DNA of 39,706 nucleotides from a virus. Lineage: Duplodnaviria > Heunggongvirae > Uroviricota > Caudoviricetes. The position numbers were made by a program, and so were the translations under genes. The notes under the pieces were generated by a model. It searched no databases, was not told the origin of the DNA, and worked only from the letters and a program-made list of their open reading frames with translations. The stretch is taken from IMG/VR virus record IMGVR_UViG_3300033146_002139, positions 1 through 39,706 of that record; one strand, 5' to 3'. This document shows, piece by piece, positions 2,734 through 27,613 of this stretch (positions are counted from its first letter, which is position 1; the number at the start of each line of letters is the position of its first letter).

Positions 2734-2734
2734 A

Positions 2735-8262: not shown

Positions 8263-8292
8263 AATTTCTCCTAACTAATTTACTGGTCGGCA

Positions 8293-8487
8293 TCAAGTAA
8301 TTGGTTTTTTTGTTTCCCTTATCTCCCACCCTTCGTATTTCATAGCCCAATTTGCTGACTGAGATTGGCTTTGTTGCAATTTAAGGCAACACTTGAAGTG
8401 GCTGCCCTCAAAAACAAATCTATCGTTTTGATATAGAAAATAAGTCTGTTCTTGTTCGTTTTCTTTTTTAATAGGTCTGTTTTCCAT
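8293..8487 (-). CDS. Hypothetical protein
   Basis: ORF with GGAG RBS. Confidence 0.7.
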   Translation of the reverse strand: MENRPIKKENEQEQTYFLYQNDRFVFEGSHFKCCLKLQQSQSQSANWAMKYEGWEIRETKKPIT

Positions 8488-9020
8488 TATGCTTCTCCAT
8501 CAATGAATAACTTCGAATTAAAACTTAAAACTTGATAGTGTTTGTCTAATTTTCTCAAAGCTGAAAGTTTTTGAATTATTTGATTTTTAAGCACTAGAGC
8601 TTCATCGTATTTCTCGTTCCATCTCGTGCTTTGTAGTTCTTTATGTACGGTCTCAAGAGTAAATGATTGGTACTCGATATAAGTATGGGTTCTTAATCCG
8701 GAATCTTCCTCTATCTTTTTACCTGTAAACTCAAAATGTTCGTAAGGAATATAAATAACAAATTTTTCTTCTCTTAAATAATCGATTCTTTCTTTGATTA
8801 TAAAAGTTTTCCCATCAAGTTTAACTTTTGTTCTTGATATTATTTTCGGGACTTCTAATGTGTTGTGCTGATTAAAAGCACCACCAAACCACCTTACACT
8901 AAATAGAACATTTTGTTCTTTTTGAGAATAAAGGCTTATGTGATAAATTTCTTTGTCTCCAAAGAAGAATGGATTGTGCGAGTTAACTTTTCTTGCTAAG
9001 ACGGAGTTTTCTTTCTTCAT
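8487..9020 (-). CDS. Hypothetical protein
   Basis: 177-aa ORF with GGAG RBS. Confidence 0.75.
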   Translation of the reverse strand: MKKENSVLARKVNSHNPFFFGDKEIYHISLYSQKEQNVLFSVRWFGGAFNQHNTLEVPKIISRTKVKLDGKTFIIKERIDYLREEKFVIYIPYEHFEFTGKKIEEDSGLRTHTYIEYQSFTLETVHKELQSTRWNEKYDEALVLKNQIIQKLSALRKLDKHYQVLSFNSKLFIDGEA

Positions 9021-9267
9021 CTATTATCTCCAAATATTCTTTAAAGGTTGTTGGCTTATTTGGAACATACGTGTCTTTATCGTAGTTTAATATAAAAACA
9101 CATCCAGAGGTTATTACCTTGTAGTTGCTAGAAGTAGTGTTTATTACACTGTTTAGCCCATTCCAATAACAAGCTACCCTCGAATATTCTCCGTTAGGAT
9201 AATCACCTTTTACTAAGAATAATCCCGAGTCTAAGAATTCCTCTATATTGTCTATTAGTACCTTCAT
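8983..9267 (-). CDS. Hypothetical protein
   Basis: Start MKVLID after GAGGTG. Confidence 0.7.
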   Translation of the reverse strand: MKVLIDNIEEFLDSGLFLVKGDYPNGEYSRVACYWNGLNSVINTTSSNYKVITSGCVFILNYDKDTYVPNKPTTFKEYLEIIDEERKLRLSKKS

Positions 9268-9276
9268 AAACACCTC

Positions 9277-9570
9277 TTAAATTTCAGATTTTTTTACAAA
9301 TTGACCATGCATAAATATATGGCTTTCATCAGGATATCCTTCTTCATCAATGGATAGCCCACAATAGTCTAGTATTTGTTCTTGTTGTGATAATGTCAGT
9401 TCTTTTGGTAGTTTTGTTAATTCAAAAGTCTTAACTACTCTTCCTGCTCCACCACAATCTTCAGACACTGCAATTAAATTCCTTGTTCCGTTAAAATAAA
9501 TATTGTACACTCTTAAGTCTACATCTTCTATTCCTAACTCTATATCTTCTAGTATTATATTGTAGTTCAT
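9277..9570 (-). CDS. Hypothetical protein
   Basis: ORF with GAGG RBS. Confidence 0.75.
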   Translation of the reverse strand: MNYNIILEDIELGIEDVDLRVYNIYFNGTRNLIAVSEDCGGAGRVVKTFELTKLPKELTLSQQEQILDYCGLSIDEEGYPDESHIFMHGQFVKKSEI

Positions 9571-9573
9571 ACA

Positions 9574-9780
9574 TTACCTCTTGTTTAATTGCCATTCATT
9601 ATATCCAACATTAAAAGCTATTGGGTCATGTTTTCTTACAGCTTTACCATATTCTTGTAACCACATAGCTGACATTCTAATAACACCACCTATAATCCAT
9701 TCATCTGAGCCTTGTGGTGGAGATAGCTCGTTAAGAAACTTTTCATATTCTTTTTTAGTGTATTTCAAGATTACCTCCAT
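9574..9780 (-). CDS. Hypothetical phage protein
   Basis: Likely start MEVILK; C-terminal YGKAVRKHDPIAFNVGYNEW. Confidence 0.7.
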   Translation of the reverse strand: MEVILKYTKKEYEKFLNELSPPQGSDEWIIGGVIRMSAMWLQEYGKAVRKHDPIAFNVGYNEWQLNKR

Positions 9781-10246
9781 TTTCTTTTTTCCAAGAGGAG
9801 AACTCTTTATCAAAATCTCTCCCATCTTCTTTAAATATTTTTTTTGTTTGTTCTATTATGTTTTGTTCTTGTTTTTGTTTTGCTATTCTTCGTGTCATTA
9901 GTTCAGGATTTGAAATTTCAGCTCTCATTTGTTCCTCTGAGATTCCTGTCATTTCAAATAATGTTTTCTCTATTGTATTAAGAGTTTTTTGTTTTTTCTC
10001 ACTTTCTAACCTATTAAGCAGTCTTTTAAGTCTCCATACTTCACAAGCTGATACAAGGATTGACCCTTTGCTGTCATTTGCCTTATCATATTCCCCATCA
10101 ATGTAATATGTGTTATTTGCAGTTATTGATGTAAGCATACAATACTTATCTGCTGAAGTCCAATTTAAAGGAGTTTCTAAAAAATAAGTAACATCCTCTT
10201 CTAGGAAGGGTAATATTTTAGCAACTAATTCTTGTTTTTCATTCAT
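9755..10246 (-). CDS. Hypothetical protein
   Basis: 163-aa ORF with GGAG RBS. Confidence 0.75.
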   Translation of the reverse strand: MNEKQELVAKILPFLEEDVTYFLETPLNWTSADKYCMLTSITANNTYYIDGEYDKANDSKGSILVSACEVWRLKRLLNRLESEKKQKTLNTIEKTLFEMTGISEEQMRAEISNPELMTRRIAKQKQEQNIIEQTKKIFKEDGRDFDKEFSSWKKENGGNLEIH

Positions 10247-10655
10247 CTTTATCTCCGATAAGGTCTAATTCAAATTTATTAACATTGTCGTATAAAGAGT
10301 TTCCTTCTTCATCCAACACTTCTATAGTGGGTTGGTTATGATTTTCTGAAGGACTTAATGTTTCTACTGTTTCAAATAGTATCTCAGAGCTGTTTACGGT
10401 TTCACAATCAACAGCAATTAACACTGCTTCTTCGTTTGAGTCGGCTGAAACCCTTACGGTATCTCTTTCCCATATTGTCACTTTTCTATCAACAAAGATG
10501 GTGTGTATTTTTTTCCAAACTGGTTGGAACAAGCTCGGACCGATAATACAAGGAAGCTCTTTGTTGTTTTTGTCGTTAGTAAGACAACCATCTTCAAGAC
10601 TTTTGTTTTTATAGCATTCGTTGCAGTGCCACTTATATCCACTTTGACAACCCAT
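10239..10655 (-). CDS. Hypothetical protein
   Basis: ORF with AGGAG RBS. Confidence 0.75.
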   Translation of the reverse strand: MGCQSGYKWHCNECYKNKSLEDGCLTNDKNNKELPCIIGPSLFQPVWKKIHTIFVDRKVTIWERDTVRVSADSNEEAVLIAVDCETVNSSEILFETVETLSPSENHNQPTIEVLDEEGNSLYDNVNKFELDLIGDKDE

Positions 10656-10665
10656 TTTCTCTCCT

Positions 10666-11193
10666 TTATTTAGGCTCTATGTCTGCTAAATACTCATCTG
10701 TTTCACATATAGGGCATCCATTTCCAAATCCATCTTTATCTTTAAATGGTACCAAATCTTCTTCTTCGCCTCGGAATTCGCAATTACAACATTTAACGGT
10801 GTAATTAACGGTACTACAGTATTCATCAAGATAAAAGTCTATAGTATCCCAGGTAATTCCGTATTCACTATCAGCTTTTCTAATCATCGTATGTAGTGCT
10901 TCTTCAAATTTTGACTCATCGTATACATCTTCCCATAATACTTTTGAACCTGATAACCTGTCTATGGCTCTACTTTTGAAGTCTTCAGTACTCCATCCTA
11001 AATCCATAATTCCATTTCTACGGTCGTCAATAAGTCTAACTTCTTCTTCAGTGAGCGTTAGTTTTGTCAATGCGTCGTACATTCCCCATCCTTGGGCTTG
11101 TTCCTTGCTATTACCACCTTTGATTAGTTCATCAGCACATTCTTTAACATATGCAATCTTTTCGGTTAAACTACTCATTTGCCACCTCGACAT
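10666..11193 (-). CDS. Hypothetical protein with C-terminal zinc ribbon
   Basis: CCNC...CPIC. Confidence 0.75.
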   Translation of the reverse strand: MSRWQMSSLTEKIAYVKECADELIKGGNSKEQAQGWGMYDALTKLTLTEEEVRLIDDRRNGIMDLGWSTEDFKSRAIDRLSGSKVLWEDVYDESKFEEALHTMIRKADSEYGITWDTIDFYLDEYCSTVNYTVKCCNCEFRGEEEDLVPFKDKDGFGNGCPICETDEYLADIEPK

Positions 11194-11204
11194 AATTTAA
11201 TGGT

Positions 11205-11411
11205 TTATTTAATTTCTATTGTATAGCTTGTTATTACGAAGTCTGCATCATCATCTTCGTTGCTATTTTTTAAATCTTCCTCACTTAGCCCATAAAAGAA
11301 AAAATCATCATCGTGATATCCTTCTGGAGTATGGTCATATTCAGCTATGAGCATATCATTAAACTCGAAGCCATCGTCTTTAAAATAACCGTCTACTTTA
11401 AATATTTTCAT
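11205..11411 (-). CDS. Small acidic hypothetical protein
   Basis: ORF with AGGAG RBS; D/E-rich. Confidence 0.75.
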   Translation of the reverse strand: MKIFKVDGYFKDDGFEFNDMLIAEYDHTPEGYHDDDFFFYGLSEEDLKNSNEDDDADFVITSYTIEIK

Positions 11412-11700
11412 TTTGTTCTCCTAAGGCTCTTTCTGCAAAACTCTCTACAATAGGATGTTCTCCATATGTTGACAACGAGTTCATTGCAGTATTAAGTGCT
11501 GCAGTTAATAACAATTCCTTTTTATTGGGATTGTATTCTTTATATTTCCTATGTGTTACTTTCCACATTGCAGGAGCAACATTGTATTGAAACAGCCCTA
11601 TAAGATGTTTTGTTTCTTCGGTGTCTAATAAAGCAAATAATCTTTTTCTTGCTTTTTCTAAAGCATCTATATCATCTTGACTAACAATAACTTCTTTCAT
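11398..11700 (-). CDS. Hypothetical protein
   Basis: ORF with GAGGTG RBS. Confidence 0.75.
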   Translation of the reverse strand: MKEVIVSQDDIDALEKARKRLFALLDTEETKHLIGLFQYNVAPAMWKVTHRKYKEYNPNKKELLLTAALNTAMNSLSTYGEHPIVESFAERALGEQNENI

Positions 11701-11710
11701 AATGCACCTC

Positions 11711-11959
11711 TTAATCTATTTCAATATATTTAGGTTTTTCTTTTCTCCAATTAAGTTTTGGCTCTAAGACTATAACATCTTCAATATTTACCTCAGAGAG
11801 CTTTCTTTCAGTGAATACATCGCTGTTATAGACATACCCATTGTCATCGTCTTCGTAAATACCATCTACAAAAGTATCCATATATGCAGTGTCATCAACA
11901 AGAACTTTATAATTATTGTCGTGATAATCCTCTAATTTTCTAGCTTCATCTTTTGTCAT
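11711..11959 (-). CDS. Hypothetical acidic protein
   Basis: ORF with GGGGG RBS. Confidence 0.75.
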   Translation of the reverse strand: MTKDEARKLEDYHDNNYKVLVDDTAYMDTFVDGIYEDDDNGYVYNSDVFTERKLSEVNIEDVIVLEPKLNWRKEKPKYIEID

Positions 11960-11996
11960 AATACCCCCGTTTAGTGTTGTTTAATATTATTCTAAA

Positions 11997-12069
11997 TCCA
12001 GCAGACAGAATCGAACTGTCGATTGTGTAAAAAATTTAACCTTACACTTCCCACCAGTGGAATACTGGA
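11997..12069 (-). ncRNA. tRNA-like element (non-canonical D and anticodon arms)
   Basis: Minus strand TCCAGTA-TTCCACTGGTGGGAA-GTGTAAGG TTAAATT TTTTACAC-AATC-GACAG TTCGATT CTGTC-TGCTGGA: 7-bp acceptor and perfect T arm. Confidence 0.7.
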
Positions 12070-12075
12070 ACATTA

Positions 12076-12690
12076 TTATTTTTTCATAAAATCTGTAATT
12101 AATTTCAACATTTTTTCTCTATGAAACTTAAACGCATAATACTCATTAATCTTTCCTAACAACTTTCCGAACATAAGTTTATTGTGATTTTCGCAATCAT
12201 TATCCGATTCATGAAGCATTAACACCTCTCTAATAATAACATCGTCTTTCGAATCATAGAGTATTCCTGTAGTAAGGTATCCATCAAACTTAATCCCAAT
12301 ATAAACATTCTTGTACTGCTCAATAGGATAGTCTTGATTAAGCAGTACTTTTACTAGTTCAGTATCCCTTTTATCAATTCTGAGTAATTCTTTAGAATCC
12401 TCTATTGTAGAGGCATTCAGTTTTTTGATATAATCTTTATTCGCCTTTATCTTACTCATCAGCTCTGCACTATTCATATTTCCCTTTGTAAAAGTGATTA
12501 GTGCAGTTTCAGTACTAATCCTTTTAAGGTTAGCCATAGTCTTCTCGAATATTTTAGCCTTAGTTAGTTTTAGTGTTTCTGCCTTTATTGACTTTTCCAA
12601 GGCAATCTTTTTGTTGTTATTTACCACAAACTTTTTCAAAGAGTAAAAGTCTTTTCCAAAGTTTTCTTTCATTTTGTCTTTTAATGACAT
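12076..12690 (-). CDS. Hypothetical protein
   Basis: 204-aa ORF with AGGAG RBS. Confidence 0.8.
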   Translation of the reverse strand: MSLKDKMKENFGKDFYSLKKFVVNNNKKIALEKSIKAETLKLTKAKIFEKTMANLKRISTETALITFTKGNMNSAELMSKIKANKDYIKKLNASTIEDSKELLRIDKRDTELVKVLLNQDYPIEQYKNVYIGIKFDGYLTTGILYDSKDDVIIREVLMLHESDNDCENHNKLMFGKLLGKINEYYAFKFHREKMLKLITDFMKK

Positions 12691-12705
12691 TTGAAGCTCC
12701 TTTTT

Positions 12706-12909
12706 TTAAATTGCAATAAAATGTTTTATATTAGGTTTATCTAGGCTATTCCTTTCCTCTTCAGTAACCTTGCCTATTAACAACCCGCCTACAAATACGA
12801 GAATATCATTTCCCTCGATTTTAGTTTGGTTGTTTTTTTTTGCGAATATAAAATCTCTATACTCACTGCTGTTTACTTCTTTCAATTCTAAAACACTGTT
12901 CGTATTCAT
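12706..12909 (-). CDS. Hypothetical protein
   Basis: ORF with GGGAG RBS. Confidence 0.7.
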   Translation of the reverse strand: MNTNSVLELKEVNSSEYRDFIFAKKNNQTKIEGNDILVFVGGLLIGKVTEEERNSLDKPNIKHFIAI

Positions 12910-12918
12910 AATACTCCC

Positions 12919-13068
12919 TTATTTTAGTTGGTCGGCATAATTTAACAGAGTTATCTGTTCTAATTTTGATGATAATATCCCTCTTATAGAAGCTTTCTCT
13001 ATCCATACATCTTTATGAGGAAGTTTACTATATTCGTAGTATTCGTTTTTCAAATCTTCAATAGACAT
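12919..13068 (-). CDS. Small hypothetical protein
   Basis: Probable start MSIEDLK directly after the upstream stop. Confidence 0.55.
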   Translation of the reverse strand: MSIEDLKNEYYEYSKLPHKDVWIEKASIRGILSSKLEQITLLNYADQLK

Positions 13069-13069
13069 T

Positions 13070-13312
13070 TTAAGCCATTTCGCTATTGGGGCTGGTGCTT
13101 TCATCTGCAACCCCCCTACTGCATATCGCATCAAGAAAACCATGGATTTCTTCGGCAACACTACTGTAAGGTATCCACTTCATAATACTTTCAGGTAAGA
13201 CCTCGACCTTGACGGCTAGCTTCCTACTAAAATCTATTTCCTGTATTTGCAAAACATCTCTACCGTCTCTGATAGAGAAATACTTTATCTCTTTGCTGAT
13301 GTCAACTTCCAT
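13070..13312 (-). CDS. Hypothetical protein
   Basis: Start MEVDISK after GAGGAGAAAGG. Confidence 0.65.
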   Translation of the reverse strand: MEVDISKEIKYFSIRDGRDVLQIQEIDFSRKLAVKVEVLPESIMKWIPYSSVAEEIHGFLDAICSRGVADESTSPNSEMA

Positions 13313-13470
13313 TATCCTTTCTCCTCTAGTTTTACAGGTACTACTGAATACCAAATTATTTCTCCAGGATTTAATTCATCTGCAACACTGAATGTTAATG
13401 TTGTGTCTGCAAACTTAATCTCTAATACTTCGTATCCGAACAATTCTTCTATCATCTTAAAATAAGTCAT
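13312..13470 (-). CDS. Small hypothetical protein (52 aa)
   Basis: Manual translation MTYFKMIEELFGYEVLEIKF...; GGAGG RBS; TAATG coupling to the next gene. Confidence 0.65.
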   Translation of the reverse strand: MTYFKMIEELFGYEVLEIKFADTTLTFSVADELNPGEIIWYSVVPVKLEEKG

Positions 13471-13781
13471 TTAATTCCTCCGGTAAGTTAATCCTATAAC
13501 GGATACCTTTCACTAAAAGATACCCGGTATAACATTCTCTTATATTTTATCTTCTTTATTATATAATTAATTATAGTGGTGTTTCACTTATCTACCAGCT
13601 TAGTGTTACCCACGCATAAGCACCTCAATTTATAACGAACATATTGCTGTTCAATCGGAACATAGTAATTTCTCCTACTACCGCTTAGGAGCGTACTACT
13701 TGCCACGTTCGTTGTTAGTTATTAGTTTGTGTTCTGTTACTGATTTTTTAATATTTCTATCGTTATCATACAGTCCTCTCT

Positions 13782-13919
13782 TTACCAAAATTCAACATTG
13801 TTAGGTAGTCTTTCAACTCCTAACCATTTTCTGACAAAAGCTTTTGCATCTTTCTTGTTCATTTTAACTGGAAGTGACATTGCATATACATCACCTGGAA
13901 GCATAAAGTAACCTATCAT
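13782..13919 (-). CDS. Small hypothetical protein (45 aa)
   Basis: MIGYFMLPGDVYAM...WLGVERLPNNVEFW; GGAGG RBS. Confidence 0.6.
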   Translation of the reverse strand: MIGYFMLPGDVYAMSLPVKMNKKDAKAFVRKWLGVERLPNNVEFW

Positions 13920-14377
13920 TCTAACCTCCTTTTGTCTTCGTAAGAGTAAAAGTCAATCAATTCTTTTGTAAATATTATATGGTCAAGTATTGTGATATTT
14001 AACAGATTCCCTGCTTTGACAAGTATAGAGGTTATATTGTCATCATTAGGAGATGGTGTTGTTTCTCCTCCGGGATGATTGTGGCATATAATTATCCCGG
14101 CTGCTGAATGTATGAAAGCAGGTTTGAATACTTCTCTTGTATGTACTAATGATGCTGTTAAATGACCAATGCTAATTACTTCTGAATGTATTATTTTATT
14201 TTTACTGTTCAGATATAAGCCTATAAAATGTTCTTTGTTATCATCTGTAATTAGATTGTTTGCAGTCTTTACAAATTCTATAACATCCTTTGGTTCTCGA
14301 ATGCTACTTGATTGATTAGCTTCTAATTTATCAATATATTTTAGCAATTCTTTTTTTGTCCAATTTTTCATGACCAC
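13916..14377 (-). CDS. radC: RadC-like JAB-domain protein
   Basis: KEHF...LNSKN...ISIGHL.ASLVHTREVFK.A....AAGIIICHNHPGG...PSPND..IT..L..AG.LL.I.ILDHII. Confidence 0.92.
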   Translation of the reverse strand: MVMKNWTKKELLKYIDKLEANQSSSIREPKDVIEFVKTANNLITDDNKEHFIGLYLNSKNKIIHSEVISIGHLTASLVHTREVFKPAFIHSAAGIIICHNHPGGETTPSPNDDNITSILVKAGNLLNITILDHIIFTKELIDFYSYEDKRRLE

Positions 14378-14437
14378 TCCTATAATTTGATAGAACTTTT
14401 CTCCATCACTTTAGTATTTCTTTGCCCATCCGGGATA

Positions 14438-15352
14438 CTAAGCTCTATCTATTTCAACTAACTCTCCATCTATAATAGAGAAGTTTTCACATAAATCTAA
14501 GAAACTTTCCACAACATCATCGCATAGCTTATCGAAAGATTGCACTAACTCAACTCTTTCTTGTAATTCGTACAATTCCCAACCATCAAAGTAATCTTCA
14601 TCATTATCATCTATAGAAGTCATAGATGTAAAAACTTCTTTAAGTGTGCAGTTTATTCTCTCAGGCTCTCCACAAGCACCACATATATTTCCTGTATCTT
14701 CTACGGTAGTGTAGTTTTTTTGAGAACATTCGGTGCAGTGAGACTTATATTGACTGTTTCTTGAGCCTCCAGAATAAAGAACCATATATCCACCACTTCT
14801 TCCGTTAAACCCTACTTGATAAGTAAAGTCCTGTTCTTCTTCCCACTCTCTAATAATATCTCGAATGTAGTCTCCAGTTAAGTCTTCATATATTAACATA
14901 TATGCCGCATCTGGAACATTTGGTATGTTATGCAACTTCACATTATGAGCATAAGATGTCATTCCGTTCCAACTACTCATAGTATCGTATCTAAAATGAT
15001 TAGCAAGAAACTCTATCATCTTTACCCTACTTCTTTTATCCACTTTCAGATAAAATGGATTGCGAACAACAGTCGGCTTTGGTGGGTCGGCATAAATTAT
15101 TGTATTATCCGGGACTTCTATAACTTTATAATTACTATCAAAGTTATATGGAAGACAATTACTAGTAAAACTTCCACCTGCTAATTTAATTCCTAAAGAG
15201 TTAGCTATAGTTATCGCTTTTCTTTGCGAAGTATCAAAGTCATTTATGTTTTTTATTTTAAACACTGTAAAATATTCCTCATTTAAACCAGACTTCTTGT
15301 TCTTTTTTAATTCTTTGTTATCTGCATATAAATAATCATAATGTATGTTCAT
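14438..15352 (-). CDS. Hypothetical phage protein with Zn-finger insert
   Basis: Start MNIHY after GGAG; HFRYDTMSSWNGMTSYAHNVK, GFNGRSGGY, CTEC..CGAC. Confidence 0.8.
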   Translation of the reverse strand: MNIHYDYLYADNKELKKNKKSGLNEEYFTVFKIKNINDFDTSQRKAITIANSLGIKLAGGSFTSNCLPYNFDSNYKVIEVPDNTIIYADPPKPTVVRNPFYLKVDKRSRVKMIEFLANHFRYDTMSSWNGMTSYAHNVKLHNIPNVPDAAYMLIYEDLTGDYIRDIIREWEEEQDFTYQVGFNGRSGGYMVLYSGGSRNSQYKSHCTECSQKNYTTVEDTGNICGACGEPERINCTLKEVFTSMTSIDDNDEDYFDGWELYELQERVELVQSFDKLCDDVVESFLDLCENFSIIDGELVEIDRA

Positions 15353-15356
15353 ATTC

Positions 15357-15575
15357 TTATACTCCACAACATTTTTTGTATTTCTTGCCACTACTACAAG
15401 GACAAGGTTCATTCCTGCCGATTGCTTTTTCAACAGCTCTAGGAGAAACTTTGCTTCTTATTGGATAGTTATTAGATTTGTACTTCTCAGTATTGTATTC
15501 CCTCACAATATCTTTTAGTAAAATATTTAAAGGAACACTCTCACCAATAACGGCAACTTCTTTAGGTCTTTCCAT
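15357..15575 (-). CDS. SEC-C motif protein
   Basis: C-terminal [20 protein letters not shown]. Confidence 0.9.
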
Positions 15576-15578
15576 TTA

Positions 15579-16001
15579 CTACCTCATTTTTACACAATCT
15601 TTTAAAAAGACTCTCAATTCTCCATACTTGAAATATCTACCAAAGTTATCTGCTGATAGATAAATATCAAGCCAATCGGAAAGAGTATGACCGTCTTTTA
15701 CTTTTATTTGAGTTCCAAGACTATTCATCTGAATGTCTAATTGATTGACAGAGTTTATCGCGTAATAACCTTGGCGTTCAAAACCTTCAAAAGCAACATA
15801 TTCAGAAATACTATCAGCCCAATCAGTAAACTCTTGACCTAATTCGTCAAAAGATTTATTTACTGAAGGAGGGTATTTGCTTTCCAATACTTTGCTTAAT
15901 CCATTTGCGTTATTCCATATGGAAGATATTTTCTCTATTGCAATTTCAATATCTTCTATATGTGCTACGACTTTCATTAGAATCTGTTGTTTATCGTTCA
16001 T
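15579..16001 (-). CDS. Hypothetical protein
   Basis: Start MNDKQ after AAAGGAG. Confidence 0.75.
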   Translation of the reverse strand: MNDKQQILMKVVAHIEDIEIAIEKISSIWNNANGLSKVLESKYPPSVNKSFDELGQEFTDWADSISEYVAFEGFERQGYYAINSVNQLDIQMNSLGTQIKVKDGHTLSDWLDIYLSADNFGRYFKYGELRVFLKDCVKMR

Positions 16002-16003
16002 AA

Positions 16004-16252
16004 TCACAACTCCTTTCTATCATACTTACTAATCCAAAGCTCTGAAGCTGATACTAAATCCTCATCATTCCAGATGCTTTCAAAATGTTTTGTAAGCTCC
16101 GAAAATGTTTCATCCATTGGCTTCTCTACAATATCCATTATCTTTGAAACAACAGGCATAATGAATGCCCATCCTGATTTATTCCTGTCAAAGCCGTAAA
16201 AATCTTCCTCATCTTCTTTTATGACCATAAAATTTTCTATTAAAGCAGACAT
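16004..16252 (-). CDS. Hypothetical protein
   Basis: ORF with AAGGA RBS. Confidence 0.7.
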   Translation of the reverse strand: MSALIENFMVIKEDEEDFYGFDRNKSGWAFIMPVVSKIMDIVEKPMDETFSELTKHFESIWNDEDLVSASELWISKYDRKEL

Positions 16253-16263
16253 AATCAATTCCT

Positions 16264-16641
16264 TTATTTATCAAAGAAACTATTTCTCCAAACTTTTTCT
16301 CCAAGTCTTTTGAAATTTTCTTTATTCAACATTATAAACTCATAAGCCTTCTTTAATGAGTTATATGAATTTTCATTACAATTAAACCCAACGGTATTCA
16401 TTTCTCCATACCATACATCAATAATATTTTCTCTATCAGCACCAAATTCTAATAGTTGCTCCTCAGAAAGTTGAATATCAATATATACGGAATTATGAGG
16501 TTTTTTCATAAAACTATAAGGAACAACCTCAGTTAGATACACAGGTATTCCCTCTATAAAGTAAATTTCTCTATTAGAATTTCTGTTAATAAAGAGATTT
16601 TCTATTGTCTGGGACTCGTGCCATTCTTCAAACTTTAACAT
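16264..16641 (-). CDS. Hypothetical protein
   Basis: ORF with AGGAG RBS. Confidence 0.75.
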   Translation of the reverse strand: MLKFEEWHESQTIENLFINRNSNREIYFIEGIPVYLTEVVPYSFMKKPHNSVYIDIQLSEEQLLEFGADRENIIDVWYGEMNTVGFNCNENSYNSLKKAYEFIMLNKENFKRLGEKVWRNSFFDK

Positions 16642-16643
16642 AG

Positions 16644-16961
16644 CTAACTCCTTATAATTTCTAGGTTTTCAAGTTTCCCTGCTATTGACTTTCTTAGTAA
16701 AGTCTTGTTTGGAGCATACATTTCTTCCCAATGTCCATATAGCCTTCTTACTCTATATAGTTTTAAGAATGGCTTGTAGTTATATTCAAACCCTGCTGCT
16801 TTATACACACCTTGTCTTTTTAAATTCTCTAATCCATACGAGAATTTACTACTGTACTTATCTTTTAAAAAGGCTACAGCTTCTTCCTTAGTCTCGGAAG
16901 TTATTCCTGCATCACCTAAGACATTTTCGTTTATTTTTTTTCTTTCTATTTTAAATTTCAT
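16644..16961 (-). CDS. Hypothetical protein (tandem paralog B)
   Basis: GFEYNYKPFLKLY...WEEMYAPNKTLLR, shared with 16951..17271. Confidence 0.8.
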   Translation of the reverse strand: MKFKIERKKINENVLGDAGITSETKEEAVAFLKDKYSSKFSYGLENLKRQGVYKAAGFEYNYKPFLKLYRVRRLYGHWEEMYAPNKTLLRKSIAGKLENLEIIRS

Positions 16962-17271
16962 AAACATTCTCCAATAGGACAATTCTGTCTATTTTTTCCG
17001 AGCAAGCTGTCCTTAATAATTTTCTACTCGGAGCATACATTTCAGTCCAAGTATCATACGTTTTAACAAGATATAGTTTTAGGAATGGCTTATATATATA
17101 TTCAAAGCCGCTAACACGATATGCACCAAATTGTTTCAAACGGTCTATTCCAAAATTAAAAGGGTCGGCATATTTCTCTGCTAAAAATATTGCTACTGTT
17201 CCAGGTGTATCATCAGTTTTTGAGAATACACTCCCATCAATATTGTTGTTGATTTTTATTCTATCTAGCAT
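16951..17271 (-). CDS. Hypothetical protein (tandem paralog A)
   Basis: GFEYIYKPFLKLY...WTEMYAPSRKLLR. Confidence 0.8.
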   Translation of the reverse strand: MLDRIKINNNIDGSVFSKTDDTPGTVAIFLAEKYADPFNFGIDRLKQFGAYRVSGFEYIYKPFLKLYLVKTYDTWTEMYAPSRKLLRTACSEKIDRIVLLENVYEI

Positions 17272-17282
17272 AACAATTTCTC

Positions 17283-17981
17283 CTATTTAAAATCTTTGCC
17301 CATTGTCTTTCTTGTAGTTTTCATACTTTCTTCTTCGTGTACACTAAATGTATACTCATTCAAAAAAACATATCTTATAGGATGTGCTACAATACTCAAG
17401 AAGTATACCTCTCCACTTATTAGGTCGTTGATAGCTACACTATTCACAGTGTTGGCTTGTGGATTATGTGCATTTCCATACACATAGTTAATTAGTTTTC
17501 TGTTAACAAACTTTTTAGCTTCACTATATGTACTAAAAACTTTTGGGGTGAATTCCAATTCTGTCAATTTCGCTGAAGATAAACTCCAAAGAGTTTCTGA
17601 AGCCCAATTTAAGGCTTGACAATTATCTTCTTTATCAAATCTTTGTATGTAAAAATCATTTGACACAGAAACCGTATATCGGTTTTCTTTCCTGATGTCA
17701 ACCAATTTATTCTCTATAATATATTCATCCTCAAGTCTAGAAAACTCTCCCGTCAACTCTTCGTATCTTGAGTAAGTAACAGCGAAGTCTGTTTTGCCAT
17801 CTTCATTCTCAACAACCAAATCAAAAGCATCATTGAGAAGTTTCCTTACTTGACTTTTTGCTAAACATCCTGAAGCAACTACCATGTTTCCATCCATGGC
17901 AATTACTCCCATTTCATTACTAGCTAATTCATTAAATGCTAAGCTGTAATGATTTCCTGGAGCAAACTTTTTCTTATACAT
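17283..17981 (-). CDS. Hypothetical protein
   Basis: 232-aa ORF overlapping the upstream stop. Confidence 0.8.
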   Translation of the reverse strand: MYKKKFAPGNHYSLAFNELASNEMGVIAMDGNMVVASGCLAKSQVRKLLNDAFDLVVENEDGKTDFAVTYSRYEELTGEFSRLEDEYIIENKLVDIRKENRYTVSVSNDFYIQRFDKEDNCQALNWASETLWSLSSAKLTELEFTPKVFSTYSEAKKFVNRKLINYVYGNAHNPQANTVNSVAINDLISGEVYFLSIVAHPIRYVFLNEYTFSVHEEESMKTTRKTMGKDFK

Positions 17982-18867
17982 TTCCCAATTCCCCTATAAT
18001 TTTATCAGCCTTATCTACAGCAGATATTAAAGTTTCCATTCTCATCCCAAGAGCCTTTCCTCTTGACCAAGATTTAACATATAGCTCAGCATTCGTATCT
18101 AAGCCAATACTTTTCATCATTACAAAAGCAAATGAGTGAGCTTCAGTTTCCTTTAGCTCTGAAGTTAAGTCTTGCCTGTCTTTACCAAAGTGCATAAGGT
18201 AATGACCTAATTCGTGCAATAAGACAGGAATCTTACTCTCTACATTAGCATTCGAGTTAACTACTAACTTTTCTCCATCTGTCCAACCACCTCTTGCTAG
18301 TACATCAGGTTTTTCTTCGACCGTAATGTTTTTAGCTTTTAGAGAAGCTCTTAACTTGGCATAGAGGTCGGCATAATTTATCGTATCTTTACCGAATACC
18401 CTCAGCGTGCCATTTGCAGGTAATTCATCGCCTTCTGTGTTCTGTATATCATACACAGTTACAGCCTTAAAGATAGAATATGTATACTCTTTTTTAAGAG
18501 CATCTAATTCTTCTTTACTCATTGATAAAGTTGTTGCTTTTTTTAGCCCATCCCAATTGATTTTCGTCATTGGAGACAATATCTTCAACCCAACACCTTT
18601 CCCACTAACAAATCTACCAAGTGCTTTCCACTTACTAAATGGTGCGAGTTGCGAAATCTCAACCTTACCCATATTCTGGGTCATAGCTAATAATATATTA
18701 TATAGGGAATAAGAGTGAAAACCTTTCACAATCCCTTTCTTTATCCACATCGCATTTGCAATAGTTTCTGGAGTTACCTTAGCAACTCTTTCTTTTAGTT
18801 CTGCAATTGCTTTTTTCGTTTCTTCGGCATATTGCTTTTTATTAAAATTTTTCTTCTTCCAACCCAT
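17974..18867 (-). CDS. ardC: ArdC-like ssDNA-binding/zincin metallopeptidase anti-restriction protein
   Basis: FHSYSLYNILLA..Q....APFSKWKALGRFV.GKG...I..P; FKAVTVYDIQNTEG; LLHELGH...ETEAHS...YVKSW. Confidence 0.85.
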   Translation of the reverse strand: MGWKKKNFNKKQYAEETKKAIAELKERVAKVTPETIANAMWIKKGIVKGFHSYSLYNILLAMTQNMGKVEISQLAPFSKWKALGRFVSGKGVGLKILSPMTKINWDGLKKATTLSMSKEELDALKKEYTYSIFKAVTVYDIQNTEGDELPANGTLRVFGKDTINYADLYAKLRASLKAKNITVEEKPDVLARGGWTDGEKLVVNSNANVESKIPVLLHELGHYLMHFGKDRQDLTSELKETEAHSFAFVMMKSIGLDTNAELYVKSWSRGKALGMRMETLISAVDKADKIIGELGNV

Positions 18868-18886
18868 TTTTAACCCCCGTTAAAAT

Positions 18887-19123
18887 TTATAATTCGTTTA
18901 AAAAACCAACCTCAATAGCGAACATTGTATCATTTTTCGTCATAGCTTCATTTATTTGTCCATCTGTTTCAATCATACTTTCTGAGCCATCTTCGTGCAA
19001 CTCAAAAAGCTCGAAAAGTTCTTCATCAAAAATAATTTGAGCTTCTCTAGCGGGCACTACTTTCCATATAAATTTATCCGTAATAATAGGTCTTGCTCTT
19101 TCCGTAATAATACCTGAAGACAT
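18887..19123 (-). CDS. Hypothetical acidic protein
   Basis: ORF with GGGAG RBS. Confidence 0.75.
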   Translation of the reverse strand: MSSGIITERARPIITDKFIWKVVPAREAQIIFDEELFELFELHEDGSESMIETDGQINEAMTKNDTMFAIEVGFLNEL

Positions 19124-19138
19124 ATAAATCTCCCTTCT

Positions 19139-19363
19139 TTAATGTTTAAATATTTGTTTAATTTCAGTATCTCCAACTATTAGTTCTCTACCCTTAAAGC
19201 AAGGTTCTTTAATAGCTTTTGATAGCCTCAGTGAAGACATAAGTAGCTTAATTCGGTGTCCAAGCCCCTTCATACCTTGATAAGTAAAGTTTACTTTCTC
19301 TACATATAAAGCGCTAAATTCAACACCTTGTACATTGACCTTACATATTCTCTGTGTAGACAT
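19139..19363 (-). CDS. Hypothetical protein
   Basis: ORF whose GGAG RBS lies inside a hairpin. Confidence 0.7.
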   Translation of the reverse strand: MSTQRICKVNVQGVEFSALYVEKVNFTYQGMKGLGHRIKLLMSSLRLSKAIKEPCFKGRELIVGDTEIKQIFKH

Positions 19364-19409
19364 AAGTCTGCTCCGAATTCCCTTTATAAAATTATCCGGA
19401 GCAGACTTA
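19363..19409 (-). promoter_or_regulatory. RBS-sequestering hairpin
   Basis: Perfect 13-bp IR TAAGTCTGCTCCG (19363-75)/CGGAGCAGACTTA (19397-409) covering GGAG and the A of ATG. Confidence 0.75.
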
Positions 19410-19460
19410 GGGGTTGGAAGTCCACTCCAGTGTGTTCGCCCAAATCACTGAACACAATAG

Positions 19461-19510
19461 CAACCAAGTAAGGATACGAACCTCATAGCTCCAAATTCAG
19501 CTCTTGGTCG
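19461..19510 (-). ncRNA. Mini tRNA-like element lacking an anticodon arm
   Basis: CGACCAAG-AGCT GAATTTGG AGCT-A-TGAGG TTCGTAT CCTTA-CTTGGTTG. Confidence 0.65.
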
Positions 19511-19532
19511 TTGGTCGGCATTAGCTATTATT

Positions 19533-19904
19533 TTATGCAATAATTACTTTTGCATTTTTTATTTTGTTTTTTCTGTGGGTTATAACATTTCTACATCCAA
19601 CATATAACTTAATGAATAAGTCTCCACCTTGTTTAAATCTAAAAGTCTTTCCAATATCTAAAGACTTAAATTCCACAAACTCAGGCTTTGTTGTTTCAGC
19701 CGTAAGAGCTGCAAACATTTTTTCAGCTTGTTCTTTTATGTAAGTTTCATCACACTTAGTAAATGTAAAGCTTTTCACACTCAGGCAGTCAACAATAGAA
19801 GTTGCAACTGTTACATCTTTAAACTGTGAAACAGTTACTTTCTTATTCCCTTTGCTTAGCACTATGTAGTTCGGTCTGATAGACATATATTTTCTCTTCA
19901 ACAT
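19533..19904 (-). CDS. Hypothetical protein
   Basis: ORF with GGGGA RBS. Confidence 0.7.
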   Translation of the reverse strand: MLKRKYMSIRPNYIVLSKGNKKVTVSQFKDVTVATSIVDCLSVKSFTFTKCDETYIKEQAEKMFAALTAETTKPEFVEFKSLDIGKTFRFKQGGDLFIKLYVGCRNVITHRKNKIKNAKVIIA

Positions 19905-20305
19905 GTTAGTTCCCCTATAATATTTATATTTTCTTTTTTTGATTGTTCAGTTTCTTGCAAATCCCTTATCATTGACACTGGGAATACGTAACTCCCTCCA
20001 TTTCCTATTGCTATGATTGGTCGCTTGCAGCTTCGTTCTTTACAACCTGTTATAGTATATTTAATTCCATTCGCCATAAAGGTTTTGTATAAATCATTTA
20101 ACTGCATTCTGTGTTTGTAGTGGTTCTGATACCAAATTACTTTACTTGGGTCTTCAGTCGTTCCTACCATCTTACAACTAAACTTCAACTCATCATATCT
20201 TATAGAAGCGATTGTTAATTTAACCCCTGTTTCTTTTTCAATTTCATCGAACTTGGTATTGATGTAAATTCTGAAGTCTTGCATACCTTTAGCATCGAAT
20301 TTCAT
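19898..20305 (-). CDS. Hypothetical protein
   Basis: Start MKFDAK after GAGGGG. Confidence 0.75.
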   Translation of the reverse strand: MKFDAKGMQDFRIYINTKFDEIEKETGVKLTIASIRYDELKFSCKMVGTTEDPSKVIWYQNHYKHRMQLNDLYKTFMANGIKYTITGCKERSCKRPIIAIGNGGSYVFPVSMIRDLQETEQSKKENINIIGELTC

Positions 20306-20306
20306 C

Positions 20307-20804
20307 TTATTTCCCCTCGTTAAATTTTTTAAGAGAAGCTTTATCATATTCTACTTGGAAGCCATTCTCTAATAAAGTACTATTACTAAAAGTTTCACCA
20401 GCAAAGTCAGCGACGTATTTCATATAATTATTTGTTGATAATATTTTATCGTTCACAAAAGCCCAAGTAAAATAATTTCTCGGACTGTGCGTAATTCTAT
20501 CATCATCATTACCAACAGCAGAAACCTCTAGCATAGAAAGTTTAAATACTATTGCCTCGAAACTGTCAACTGGTATTGCTTTCACTACATCTTTATAATG
20601 TTCCCTACAAACATTATCAATACAGTCAAAACCTTTCACATTAGTAACATCTGAGGAGGTTCCGAATTGACTAGCAGATATATGGTTTTTGTCTTTTCCA
20701 AAAAACAGTGATACTGCATATTCCTGCAACCATCTTTCTACAATCTTTTTTAGCTGAGAAACACTAACCGTGTTCTCATTTATTTCGATATTAAAATTTT
20801 CCAT
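20307..20804 (-). CDS. Hypothetical protein
   Basis: ORF with GAGGG RBS. Confidence 0.8.
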   Translation of the reverse strand: MENFNIEINENTVSVSQLKKIVERWLQEYAVSLFFGKDKNHISASQFGTSSDVTNVKGFDCIDNVCREHYKDVVKAIPVDSFEAIVFKLSMLEVSAVGNDDDRITHSPRNYFTWAFVNDKILSTNNYMKYVADFAGETFSNSTLLENGFQVEYDKASLKKFNEGK

Positions 20805-20816
20805 AAGACCCTCAAT

Positions 20817-20957
20817 TTAAAAATTTTCTCGGATAGATGGGAATGTCTCAAGCATCCACCATAAAGCACTAAGTACAACAGAACTTAATATTACAGTTCC
20901 ACCAACAACTTTCATTATAAAGGAAGCGAACTCCATTGATAATTTTTTAAGTTTCAT
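20817..20957 (-). CDS. Small membrane protein (46 aa)
   Basis: MKLKKLSMEFASFIMKVVGGTVILSSVVLSALWWML...; GAGG RBS. Confidence 0.55.
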   Translation of the reverse strand: MKLKKLSMEFASFIMKVVGGTVILSSVVLSALWWMLETFPSIRENF

Positions 20958-20958
20958 A

Positions 20959-21291
20959 TTATACCTCAATTTCGAAGTTTTCGTCATCTGCCGTTTGAAG
21001 GATATTATCCCTCAAACTACGCAGTTCATTAACAAGTTTGGTTGCATCTGCTTCTAGGTACATGGATATTTCGTACCCCTCCTCTAAGTGTGTAACGTGT
21101 TCATGTGTTACATACCAAGTCTTAGACCCGATTTCGATGGTTATACCAAACAGTTCATTACCATCATCAGAAGTGTCAGCATAAATGCCGACATTTTGTG
21201 TCTTTTCATGAAATACAGTCTTTATTAGTTCAACAACACATCCACTACCATTGAACTTCGTGATGCAATTCTCTCTCTTTATTGTAATCAT
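20959..21291 (-). CDS. Hypothetical protein
   Basis: ORF with GGGG RBS. Confidence 0.75.
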   Translation of the reverse strand: MITIKRENCITKFNGSGCVVELIKTVFHEKTQNVGIYADTSDDGNELFGITIEIGSKTWYVTHEHVTHLEEGYEISMYLEADATKLVNELRSLRDNILQTADDENFEIEV

Positions 21292-21561
21292 TTCTATACC
21301 CCTATAGTTTAATTTAAGTAAATACTTCGGAGTGTATCAGGATAGGTGGACTTAAGCAAGGAAGCTTATTTACCAACGATACACACCGAAAGACTCACTT
21401 AATAGTTCGGATGTAGTAAAAACAAATTGCCATTATAACGGATAGTATAAGAAAAGCCATAAGCACCTTAAAAATAATTATTTGACATACCACTGCTGCG
21501 TCTGTCGGTGTAATTTAATCTCGTAGAGGTTTTTATTCTACCAAAATTTTATGGTAGTTCA

Positions 21562-21858
21562 CTAGATTAGTTTAAATTCTCCATCTGGAAAGGTTGTGAA
21601 TTTATAATGTACTATTTTACAATCTACATCATATCTATGAAGTATCTGCATCAACTTCATATTATTACCAGATGCTTCAGTAAATATACAAGTATTCTCA
21701 CCAACCCACTCTGCGAAAGTTTTAAAATCATATAACAGTTCTTCATTAACTGCTGAATTACTAGTTGGATAATTAGTAACTTCATACTCTCTTATTTCAT
21801 CATCCAGATATTTTTTCATACCTGGAGCTAGTGCTTCATTACATAATACATATAACAT
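21562..21858 (-). CDS. Hypothetical protein
   Basis: ORF with GAGG RBS. Confidence 0.75.
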   Translation of the reverse strand: MLYVLCNEALAPGMKKYLDDEIREYEVTNYPTSNSAVNEELLYDFKTFAEWVGENTCIFTEASGNNMKLMQILHRYDVDCKIVHYKFTTFPDGEFKLI

Positions 21859-21929
21859 ATTCTACCTCATTTTTTTAATAATATAATCTTTACAGAATAC
21901 CTAATTTAGATACTCAATAAAGTTCATAT

Positions 21930-21961
21930 AAAAAGGGCATACTTCTTCAAGCATGCCCTTT
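21930..21961 (-). terminator. Rho-independent terminator
   Basis: GGGCATGCTT-GAAG-AAGTATGCCC followed by TTTTT, downstream of 21994..22641. Confidence 0.7.
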
Positions 21962-21993
21962 GTTTTAATCATTTACTAGATGTTCGGTGTATA

Positions 21994-22641
21994 TTACTTC
22001 GCATCAACCGTTTCAGTAGTTTTAGGTGTTTCAACAACTTCTTCAACAACTACTTCATAGTTAGTTTTTTCTGCCCTTTCTTTAGGTGCAACATATACCA
22101 TGCCTTCAAGTAAGGCTTCATCAATAGCATTACAAACTATAGTCATCAACTTTCGAGAATTCGATTTTGTAACATTTGCGATTTTTACAACTTTAGTTTC
22201 ACCAAGACTTTTTCCTGAAGTATACTTTCTTGTTTCGTTGTAACAAGCGTCATTCTTCAAGCTAAATTGGTCTGTAGTTTTTCCATTATTTACAAGACTC
22301 TTCACAGCATCCATTGAACCAGTTATTAAGAAGTAGTCAATTACACTTTTTAGGGGGCTATAAGTCGAACACCCTGCTACTTCACAAGCCTTCTTAATTA
22401 CATCATTTTCCAACTCGGTTACTAATGTTCCAAAGATATTAGATGGAGTACTTCCGCCACCACCATTTCTTTTACTTGCCACGGCTAGTTGTTCTACTTG
22501 GTTGCCAAGTATCGTTTCAAGTACGGCTTTCGGTAGCAGTAAATAAGTTCCCATCATTGCTTCATTGATGGGATATTTCACGGTATCCAATCCAACTTCT
22601 TTCGCTACTGCCAACACATCTACTTCTGTCATTTTTTTCAT
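21994..22641 (-). CDS. Hypothetical protein (probably highly expressed early)
   Basis: Start MKKMTE after GGAG; followed by a terminator. Confidence 0.8.
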   Translation of the reverse strand: MKKMTEVDVLAVAKEVGLDTVKYPINEAMMGTYLLLPKAVLETILGNQVEQLAVASKRNGGGGSTPSNIFGTLVTELENDVIKKACEVAGCSTYSPLKSVIDYFLITGSMDAVKSLVNNGKTTDQFSLKNDACYNETRKYTSGKSLGETKVVKIANVTKSNSRKLMTIVCNAIDEALLEGMVYVAPKERAEKTNYEVVVEEVVETPKTTETVDAK

Positions 22642-22708
22642 CTTAATTCTCCAATTTTTTCGGTTATTCTCCAACTTACAACCTAGCAAGTCTTCGATAT
22701 AACTATTA

Positions 22709-22945
22709 TTATTTTTTTACTGCATATATAACGCTTTTAAGCGTCAAGTTAAGTCCGTCACGGTTCAAGTATGCAACATCCTTGCCTTCCAGCTCGGATA
22801 GTTTAACGATTGCAAACTTCGCAAGATTGTATTTTTGGATAGTAAATATCAATCTATCTAGAGTGCCGTTCTTCTTATGTTTCAACACTCTAGTTTTAGA
22901 CAAAGTTCTTCTTATAACCTTTATCATCTCTTTTGTAGCTTTCAT
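22709..22945 (-). CDS. Hypothetical basic protein
   Basis: ORF with AAGGGG RBS. Confidence 0.7.
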   Translation of the reverse strand: MKATKEMIKVIRRTLSKTRVLKHKKNGTLDRLIFTIQKYNLAKFAIVKLSELEGKDVAYLNRDGLNLTLKSVIYAVKK

Positions 22946-22956
22946 AGTTCAACCCC

Positions 22957-23052
22957 TTATATTTGGTCGATAAGGTGCTTCAACATCTTAGCAATAGTAA
23001 TAATTCCAACAGTTACAATTATTACATTCGCATTCAGTAAAAAATTCAACAT
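22957..23052 (-). CDS. Small membrane peptide (31 aa)
   Basis: MLNFLLNANVIIVTVGIITIAKMLKHLIDQI; GAGGTG RBS. Confidence 0.5.
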   Translation of the reverse strand: MLNFLLNANVIIVTVGIITIAKMLKHLIDQI

Positions 23053-23183
23053 ATTCCACCTCAATTTTATTTTTATATTGCTTGTTCGGATGGTCGTAAT
23101 GTTCTACAACCACCCTAAAAACAATATATAAATTTGATTCAAGTAATTTCAAGGTTCAGTTGCTTCCAATATAATTATATTGT

Positions 23184-23212
23184 AATATGCAAATTTATAT
23201 ATAAAAAGTCAA
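23184..23212 (-). promoter_or_regulatory. Sigma70-type promoter for early genes
   Basis: TTGACT-N17-CATATT on the minus strand. Confidence 0.55.
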
Positions 23213-23224
23213 ATATACATAAAT

Positions 23225-23846
23225 TTCAAAGTTAACAATACTTTACTTTTACTTTGTTCGCATCCATCCAATTTTTCAGGTGTGGTATGCTTTCAAGACG
23301 GCACTCTTCCAAAACTTCGGTATAGTCCAAAGTTCTTTACATTAACACTTTTAGAGTTTCGCAAGTTCTTAATATGCCAAAGTCATTTCATAAAGACATG
23401 ATTTTAATATAGCTCTTCGGAGGCATAGCTCTGCTCAGTACGCTTAATGTTTTCAAGTTCGTTCTTGATAGGTTAGACCCTTATTTCTGAGACCTCTGGC
23501 TTGTCATCACCGGAGATTTCTCTGGGTTTAATGTTTTTACACATTCCTTTTTCATCGTTCTATGTATGGTATTGTTCTTCAATCCTGCGAATTCTATTTA
23601 TTTTTCAGACTATAAGCTAAGTCCATCTATATATGAAGACCTATAGTTCAGCTTCGTGGAATTCCTCTTGTGGTTACTGGAGTTCATCCTTAATTTAATT
23701 TCTAACTAAGAAGATTTTTGAGCCTTCGTTAGGTAGTAATTCGCAATCTTTCTATTTCAAGTAATATCTTTATATATGGTAGTTCGTATGTAATATATAT
23801 AATGATATTATGTATGTTGTTAGCACATGTTGTTTGCCTGCTGACA
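23225..23846 (-). ncRNA. Candidate large structured ncRNA or leader (~620 nt)
   Basis: No ORF of 60 aa or more; begins at the expected TSS of a perfect promoter; nested long-range helices. Confidence 0.55.
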
Positions 23847-23851
23847 ATTAC

Positions 23852-23880
23852 ATTATAGGTAGATTTTTCTTTAATGTCAA
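23852..23880 (-). promoter_or_regulatory. Perfect consensus sigma70 promoter (major early promoter)
   Basis: TTGACA (23880-75)-N17-TATAAT (23857-52) with an A-rich UP-like region. Confidence 0.9.
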
Positions 23881-23939
23881 GTTTTATTTTTAATTATCTT
23901 TGGTCTTGCCTTGTATCTTGCTATTATTTGGTTATATAC

Positions 23940-24330
23940 AGACTACTAGACTTTAAAAGTATTGTATTATATTGCTATATATCTTGTATCTTACTATTAT
24001 TATATAAGTTAGCTATAATAATCTGGGGTTTAGCTATGGAATGTTGTATATGCTTGTTATTATGATAGTTAGAGTTATAAACTTGTATTTGTTTAGGTTT
24101 ACTTTATACTTTGTGATTTTTTTTTTATTTTTACAAATAGTTTATACTCTAAAGTCTTAATATTTGGTATTTTAAAGCTATATATTAGACTTTAAAATAT
24201 ATTATGATAGTTAGCTTTAGATTGTAGCTATATTGTAGTAAATAGCTTTAAAATAGTGTTTATTTTATAGCTATATTGTAGCTAGAATTTGACCTGGTTT
24301 TTTAACTTAAATTTTAGACTTGTTTTATAT
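23940..24330. repeat. Cluster of short AT-rich direct repeats (possible terminus/pac or ori region)
   Basis: TAGACTTTAAAA x2, TATTATGATAGTTAG x2, TAGCTATATTGTAG x2, many TAGCT. Confidence 0.55.
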
Positions 24331-26246: not shown

Positions 26247-26459
26247 TTGAAAGACGAAAAGCCAGTAAAGGATTCAACTGAAAAAATAAGCTCACCTAAT
26301 TGTCAGTCGTGTGTTTATTTTGTTTCAGGGACATTCGCTAATACAGAGTGTCCATTTACAAGATTTGTTTCAGAGGTCGGAGGATACAGAGTTGTATTTC
26401 CTAGGCTAGATTGGAATAAGTCAAAAGATTTTTGTTCTAAATTTTCTTCAGGGGACTAA
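26247..26459 (+). CDS. Small Cys-rich protein
   Basis: CQSC..CPF..FCSKF; paralog of 27311..27613; strong RBS, TTG start. Confidence 0.7.
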   Translation: MKDEKPVKDSTEKISSPNCQSCVYFVSGTFANTECPFTRFVSEVGGYRVVFPRLDWNKSKDFCSKFSSGD

Positions 26460-27170: not shown

Positions 27171-27310
27171 TATAGATTATAAAGCTATTATGTCATGTTT
27201 AACAGGTAAAAAACTTGACACAATAATATAAATTTGGACTCTTAGAGTGATTCTGGTTTGTCCATCCGGAAAATTTCAAATCGCTCTTTGTTTAAATAGA
27301 GAAGGTGGAT

Positions 27311-27613
27311 ATGAGTAAAAAAGTTAAAACATGCGAGAATTGCGACTTGTTTGATGTTCATAATTTTGGCGACAGGGATTGTCCTTTCGTGTCTTTCAAT
27401 GGATTGTCCGGAAGATATGTACAAGTCCTCCCTATCGGAAATAAATGGGATATTAAAAAAGACAACTGTACTAAGTGGAAAAAACTTGAAGATACCAAGA
27501 AAAAAGGTGAAGTTATTGTAAATTCATTTAAAACTGAAATTGTAGCATCAAAGACAACAAAGATGAGAAACACCGATGTTGTTGTTGGAGCTGTAATACA
27601 AAGAGCTAAATAG
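27311..27613 (+). CDS. Small Cys-rich protein
   Basis: CENC..CPF..WDIKKDNCTKW; paralog of 26247..26459. Confidence 0.75.
   Translation: MSKKVKTCENCDLFDVHNFGDRDCPFVSFNGLSGRYVQVLPIGNKWDIKKDNCTKWKKLEDTKKKGEVIVNSFKTEIVASKTTKMRNTDVVVGAVIQRAK

Follow-up and report, generated by a model that had tools for sequence, protein, structure and literature searches.

The window analysed here, 39,706 nucleotides in length, is the first 39.7 kb of the complete 167,706-base record of an uncultured phage. The phage has no close relative; its terminase is the sole member of its cluster and is 66% identical to the next match. The host is probably an anaerobic Firmicute, a member of the Clostridia, because the closest relatives of the phage TnpB are clostridial (58%). 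From 23 kb, many small ORFs are encoded leftward and run on past the record end for ~25 kb in total, and the rightward genes from 25 kb encode an HNH nuclease, tRNAs, methylases, terminase, portal and protease. An ORF-free leader is located at the point where the leftward early arm and the rightward genes diverge, and a neighbouring 215-aa protein is a singleton. A preliminary description had proposed that this leader is either a new large phage ncRNA composed of two nested domains or an antiterminator leader for the early operon.

A search with terminase homologs yielded one syntenic homolog, L378 (57% terminase identity), which has the same divergence point and the same layout: a leftward sigma70 (TTGACA) promoter is followed by ~720 ORF-free bases up to the first ribosome-binding site. 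Another relative, L377, shows a divergence gap of only ~370 nt and no such leader, and thus the element does not occur throughout the group. The features of the locus are as follows, with their counterparts in L378 and in the unrelated phage L382.

23852–23880, minus strand: perfect sigma70 promoter TTGACA-17-TATAAT, with a predicted transcription start at ~23846; the equivalent promoter is at L378:1317.
23225–23846, minus strand: ORF-free leader, a candidate large structured RNA (~620 nt), with a syntenic ~720-nt counterpart at L378:1285-570.
23762–23810, minus strand: 5′ AU-rich hairpin (pair probability 0.97), not listed previously.
23585–23746, minus strand: domain 1 as originally proposed, with 23746-23738 and 23593-23585 as its closing strands; the single-sequence ensemble favours it, and it competes with helix X.
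23604–23614, minus strand: 5′ strand of candidate long-range helix Z, 11 bp with 23331-23321; UAUAGU is common to L378.
23584–23591, minus strand: 5′ strand of candidate helix X, UUCGCAGG, pairing with 23365-23358; UUCG/CGAA core in L378 and L382.
23538–23566, minus strand: hairpin with the conserved 13-mer CGAUGAAAAAGGA (23557-23545) in its loop.
23528–23534, minus strand: 5′ strand of candidate helix Y, the ACATTAA/TTAATGT pairing noted before, with 23345-23339; it crosses X to form a pseudoknot.
23453–23468, minus strand: UCAAG/CUUGA hairpin enclosing AGAACGA, co-linear in L378 and L382.
23358–23365, minus strand: 3′ strand of helix X, CUUGCGAA, with AAGAA before it in the window and L378.
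23339–23345, minus strand: 3′ strand of helix Y, followed by AAAGAA.
23311–23336, minus strand: 10-bp hairpin (probability 0.94), whose loop ACUAUA is a possible partner of UAUAGU.
23184–23212, minus strand: weak second promoter TTGACT-17-CATATT, within an AT palindrome (23226-23191).
23056–23146, minus strand: long near-perfect hairpin burying the first ribosome-binding site, a putative RNase III-type processing site.
22957–23052, minus strand: first downstream ORF, a 31-aa hydrophobic peptide behind GAGGTGG, with no PHROG match.

The leader had been described as free of sizeable ORFs, and this was borne out: no ORF on the transcribed strand exceeds 33 aa, and each frame contains 13–24 stops of all three kinds. 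Alternative genetic codes or recoding open no ORF in the leader, and its translation through the stops has no PHROG match. The reported purine richness is real (0.59 in the core) but not distinctive because it equals that of the early arm (0.58). The GC content of the core is 35% versus 27% in the flanking non-coding kilobase, and the corresponding values in L378 are 33% versus 24%. A purine and GC content near that of the early-arm coding strand, as well as one frame mildly positive in codon scores, would fit a decayed protein gene. The number and variety of stops, the read-through without a PHROG match and the non-coding DNA of L378 at the same place largely refute this reading, to which we attach hardly any probability.

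The promoter at 23880-23852 (-) matches the consensus at all 12 of 12 positions, as had been claimed, and the genome (167.7 kb) has only one other perfect sigma70 match. The second promoter reported at 23212 is present but weak (9/12). Upstream of the main promoter, the AT-rich region at 23900-24300 contains short direct and inverted repeats (e.g. 19-23-nt pairs, 73 and 142 nt apart) and is a possible origin or UP-element region. No intrinsic terminator was found at the 3′ end of the leader; on the transcribed strand, five weak terminator-like sites lie in 1-18000 and none in 18000-23900, leader included.

The strongest local structure is the hairpin at 23146-23056 (z -5.6 to -7), which the preliminary description did not list. 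At the matching position, L378 bears 22-bp and 21-bp hairpins (z -11.5). Stems of this type in the T7 and SPO1 early transcripts are RNase III substrates. The locus resembles these RNase III-processed early leaders in its strong host promoter, its non-coding leader and, all along the early arm, the long near-perfect hairpins immediately ahead of ribosome-binding sites; it differs in that the leader is longer and carries a conserved internal motif, and the cleavage proposed here is deduced from the hairpins. Further long near-perfect hairpins precede or bury ribosome-binding sites at 21860-21925, 21300-21405, 19363-19400 and 13916-13960 of the window and near 17300-17390 of L087; they are probable RNase III or translational control sites. 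The 31-aa ORF (22957-23052, -), with its ribosome-binding site hidden in the long hairpin, has a layout that recalls tightly controlled small membrane peptides.

The leader is directly behind the best promoter and heads a ~25-kb co-oriented arm, the position is the same in L378, and a search for a phage sigma factor found none. These features are what a cis-acting antiterminator or processivity leader like HK022 put or Bacillus EAR would show, which would modify the host polymerase for the early arm and possibly be reloaded at the ATGCCGACC sites. Like put and EAR, the leader is a presumptive structured RNA right after an early promoter and before a long operon. The ATGCCGACC 9-mers are also real: six co-oriented copies are found at 8285-19521 (-) of the window (consensus tTATGCCGACC) and none elsewhere in the 167.7 kb (expected 0.02). 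The antiterminator reading nevertheless received little support, as the intrinsic terminator-like sites on the transcribed strand are so few and weak that it appears to lack targets. The suggested action with the ATGCCGACC sites by base pairing was not found either, their complementarity to the leader being no better than in shuffles (76/100 as good). In addition, the second promoter bypasses the leader, L377 does without it, and neither an evident terminator series nor an Rfam match is present. HK022 put is ~70 nt, and the leader is five to nine times longer than the put and EAR elements. We therefore consider antitermination improbable. Three ATGCCGACC copies well inside ORFs share one common reading frame, and the copies could be Chi-like or protein-binding sites (compare PMC12315714).

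We then consider the leader as an RNA fold. All motifs named in the preliminary description were found where it placed them, and forcing the fold into its model costs only 3 kcal/mol. Nearly all of its stems are real; GAACTCC/GGAATTC carries a C-A mismatch. In the ensemble, pair probabilities are high for ACTTTGG/CCGAAGT (0.94), the domain-1 closing stem (0.89) and TCAAG/CTTGA (0.76), and lower for CTAAC/GTTAG (0.49), CTATAGG/CTTATAG (0.47) and the domain-2 closing stems (0.33-0.42). Folding beyond chance was not seen for the leader sequence alone: the MFE z against shuffles is -2.0 (5′ domain, -1.3; 3′ domain, -2.2), the number of stable helices is at shuffle level (51 versus 58+/-8), and the fold scores of 120-nt sliding windows over the leader are unremarkable genome-wide. 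For calibration, the genuine L. salivarius ROOL was folded and reached z -1.1; a weak z is thus expected for this class and neither proves nor refutes an ornate RNA. UGCGAA occurs in three copies (23745, 23363 and 23262) that can all pair with one strand, and alternative conformations are therefore possible.

The leader of L378 folds at z -7.9, a value that stems largely from its 3′ hairpins, as the core alone scores -2.3. The two leaders have CGAUGAAAAAGGA in common at a similar distance from the promoter (p about 0.007), in a hairpin loop in both. The 5′ flank of this 13-mer is also similar (p=0.016-0.03), and short words common to both leaders form a co-linear chain (p=0.02-0.06). Over the whole length, the alignment of the two leaders is no better than that of shuffles (p=0.18 with the motifs masked), and the 3′ half is unaligned.

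The 13-mer contains ATG AAA AAG GA in the window, L378 and L382, and might accordingly mark the start of a short leader peptide (MKKE/MKKD) coupling ribosome loading to leader folding. The respective frames are 24 aa (23555-23481), 16 aa and 35 aa long; the peptides diverge in length and sequence after four residues, and no Shine-Dalgarno sequence lies upstream. Neither the synonymous positions nor the two bases before the ATG vary, an indication of constraint at the RNA level, and we hold the peptide reading to be very unlikely.

Comparison of the loci suggests another architecture. The proposed two-domain nested model was not upheld, as the domain-1 closing stem lacks a counterpart in L378 and the 3′ strand of this stem may instead pair 200 nt downstream. 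The window, L378 and L382 can all form helices X and Y in the same order, in which the 5′ strand of X, the motif hairpin and the 5′ strand of Y follow one another from 5′ to 3′. Between the window and L382, a C-G pair of helix X changes to U-A, and helix Y differs in sequence in all three loci yet pairs. A descriptor combining X, Y and AAGAA is passed only by these three among 45 motif-bearing sites and by 0-0.1% of shuffles, whereas X alone is matched by 11% and Y alone by 26% of shuffles. Significant covariation was not seen among the two to three sequences compared; the window and L378 share 23 helices versus 17.5+/-4 expected (p about 0.15), their consensus fold is no better than the null, and the partner strand of helix Z has no support in L378. 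In L378, CCGGC at +235 was dropped as the partner of X, since the co-linear chain puts the partner at +173. The comparison thus appears to favour the crossing helices X and Y over the domain-1 stem, and we put this fold forward as a hypothesis because the descriptor was drawn after all three sequences had been viewed and the looser tests were not significant.

Helix count and local z at shuffle level, the lack of a covariation signal, the 3′ half that does not align with L378 and the neighbouring 1 kb that is likewise ORF-free are also what would be seen if this were a long 5′ leader or spacer with a loose fold, lying at the divergence point and concerned with the promoter, polymerase loading or processing. 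Only the short motif and the 3′ hairpins would then matter, and the ornate fold would over-read AU-rich sequence. This account is possible but, in our judgement, rather unlikely. It does not sit well with a GC content above that of the neighbouring intergenic DNA in both phages, with the motif and flank common to the window and L378, or with the well-folded L378 leader, and the ROOL control itself reaches no stronger z than the leader.

Homologs beyond L378 were sought widely. No paralog was found within the phage genome. Blastn of all three leaders against GenBank phages gave no match, nor did that of L382 against plasmids; weak short-core matches to non-coding DNA of phiEco32-like phages were rejected as chance resemblances to A-rich terminal DNA. 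A DNA search of ~800 Bacillota genomes returned only two 28-nt matches, both in coding DNA, and a pattern search of 401 Bacillota genomes returned one match, which fails the X+Y+AAGAA descriptor. Viral and metagenome contigs scanned with patterns yielded chance matches, apart from L382 and the identical L385 and L388. The homolog search advised at the outset has thus provided one syntenic relative, one further candidate and nothing in GenBank phages.

L382 emerged from a pattern built from the window and L378 only, which had four distinct viral matches, three coding and one non-coding. The latter, 350 nt of non-coding DNA, lies ~100 nt behind a perfect TTGACA-17-TATAAT promoter. It has no sequence similarity to the leader outside the motifs (it ranks 37th of the 45 sites by masked sequence similarity) and is oriented toward late genes, and for these reasons we put the chance that L382 carries a 350-nt version of the leader RNA at about even. 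At L382:4135-6649, rightward genes read through TGA and the small leftward genes have open frames in the standard code, and this phage probably reads TGA as Gly. Its proteins are filed under a Cloacimonas MAG.

The leader was scanned against Rfam, as had been recommended, and matches no family at the gathering threshold or at E<=10, as expected for a new ncRNA. No family of Rfam 15, OLE, RNase P, group I intron, tmRNA and ribozymes included, has a match in the window, L378 or L382/L388. Resemblances to RNase P, group I intron, hammerhead and SAM-I noticed by eye were rejected for wrong order or core residues along with the lack of an Rfam match. The models of ROOL (RF03087; gathering 99.1 bits) and GOLLD (RF02032, conserved 3′ domain) have no match on the phage genome at E<=10, and the leader is therefore assigned to neither family; as a positive control, the ROOL model detects the L. 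salivarius ROOL on pMP118 at 130 bits. The literature searched, which excludes the catalogue of PMC10690425, contained no description of the leader RNA.

ROOL RNAs are ~580 nt, occur in phages or prophages and lie near tRNA genes (PMC12286853), a size and location that the leader matches. The leader further resembles ROOL (RF03087; PMC12286853) in being phage-borne, ~600 nt long and under its own promoter, with A-rich junctions, a weak MFE z and probable pseudoknots, and in lying within ~2.5 kb of a tRNA cluster. It differs from ROOL in its conserved motifs, in having no covariance-model match and in running into an early operon without a terminator. With GOLLD (RF02032; PMC12286853) it shares being large, non-coding, phage-encoded and near tRNA genes, but it is shorter than the typical GOLLD (>800 nt) and is transcribed away from the tRNAs.

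The leader is a promoter-driven element that codes for no protein, has a homolog by position, contains a conserved loop motif and is absent from Rfam. Judged from two or three sequences, it probably represents a new, uncatalogued kind of large phage RNA. Of the two original proposals, the new large phage ncRNA is the one that gained ground, through the syntenic, promoter-driven, folded and ORF-free leader with its loop motif; the particular fold stays hypothetical.

We suggest that the leader encodes a large immediate-early RNA, structured and probably pseudoknotted, which would form the 5′ end of the early-arm transcript. Host RNA polymerase would make this RNA abundantly at the start of infection, and the RNA would fold round the crossing long-range helices X and Y and display conserved purine-rich loops. 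A cut in the long RNase III-type hairpin ahead of the first gene, rather than an intrinsic terminator, would free it from the early mRNA, and the weaker second promoter could supply the early genes without the leader. Most conjecturally, the freed RNA would act in trans in the manner of ROOL and GOLLD, as a scaffold or decoy whose partner is a host protein or the RNA itself; it would be accessory rather than essential. For this reading as a whole, in which action in trans is the least-supported step, our confidence and our doubt are about equal.

A bolder proposal is that the leader founds an uncatalogued class of large pseudoknotted phage RNAs, with a GAUGAAAAAG loop between crossing helices, common to unrelated phages of anaerobes (one of them TGA-recoded), made first from the strongest host promoter, cut free and acting as RNA. 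We regard this proposal as tentative and somewhat doubtful. ROOL and GOLLD form RNA-only cages, and the classes of large ornate phage RNA are few. If the proposal is true, another large phage RNA class located at the head of the early transcript, not among tRNAs, would provide an independent case and a clue to timing.

Other observations were made elsewhere in the genome. At L089:2045-7824 (genome 81045-86824), a Ro60 (TROVE) gene adjoins a tRNA cluster in which several tRNA-like RNAs are over-long (120-145 nt). Two matches to YrlA at this locus are weak (E 0.002-0.003), and the locus is a probable phage-encoded Ro60/Y-RNA module. The rest of the genome (L089-L093) encodes RNA-repair and NAD functions (RtcB, Thg1, a PARP-like protein, NAD synthase, NAPRTase and a protein kinase), four TnpB genes and one IscB-like gene. 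Within the window, 26247-26459 and 27305-27613 encode paralogous small Cys-rich proteins (CxxC...CPF...W...DxC), and such proteins are found near the tRNA cluster in most of the relatives examined.
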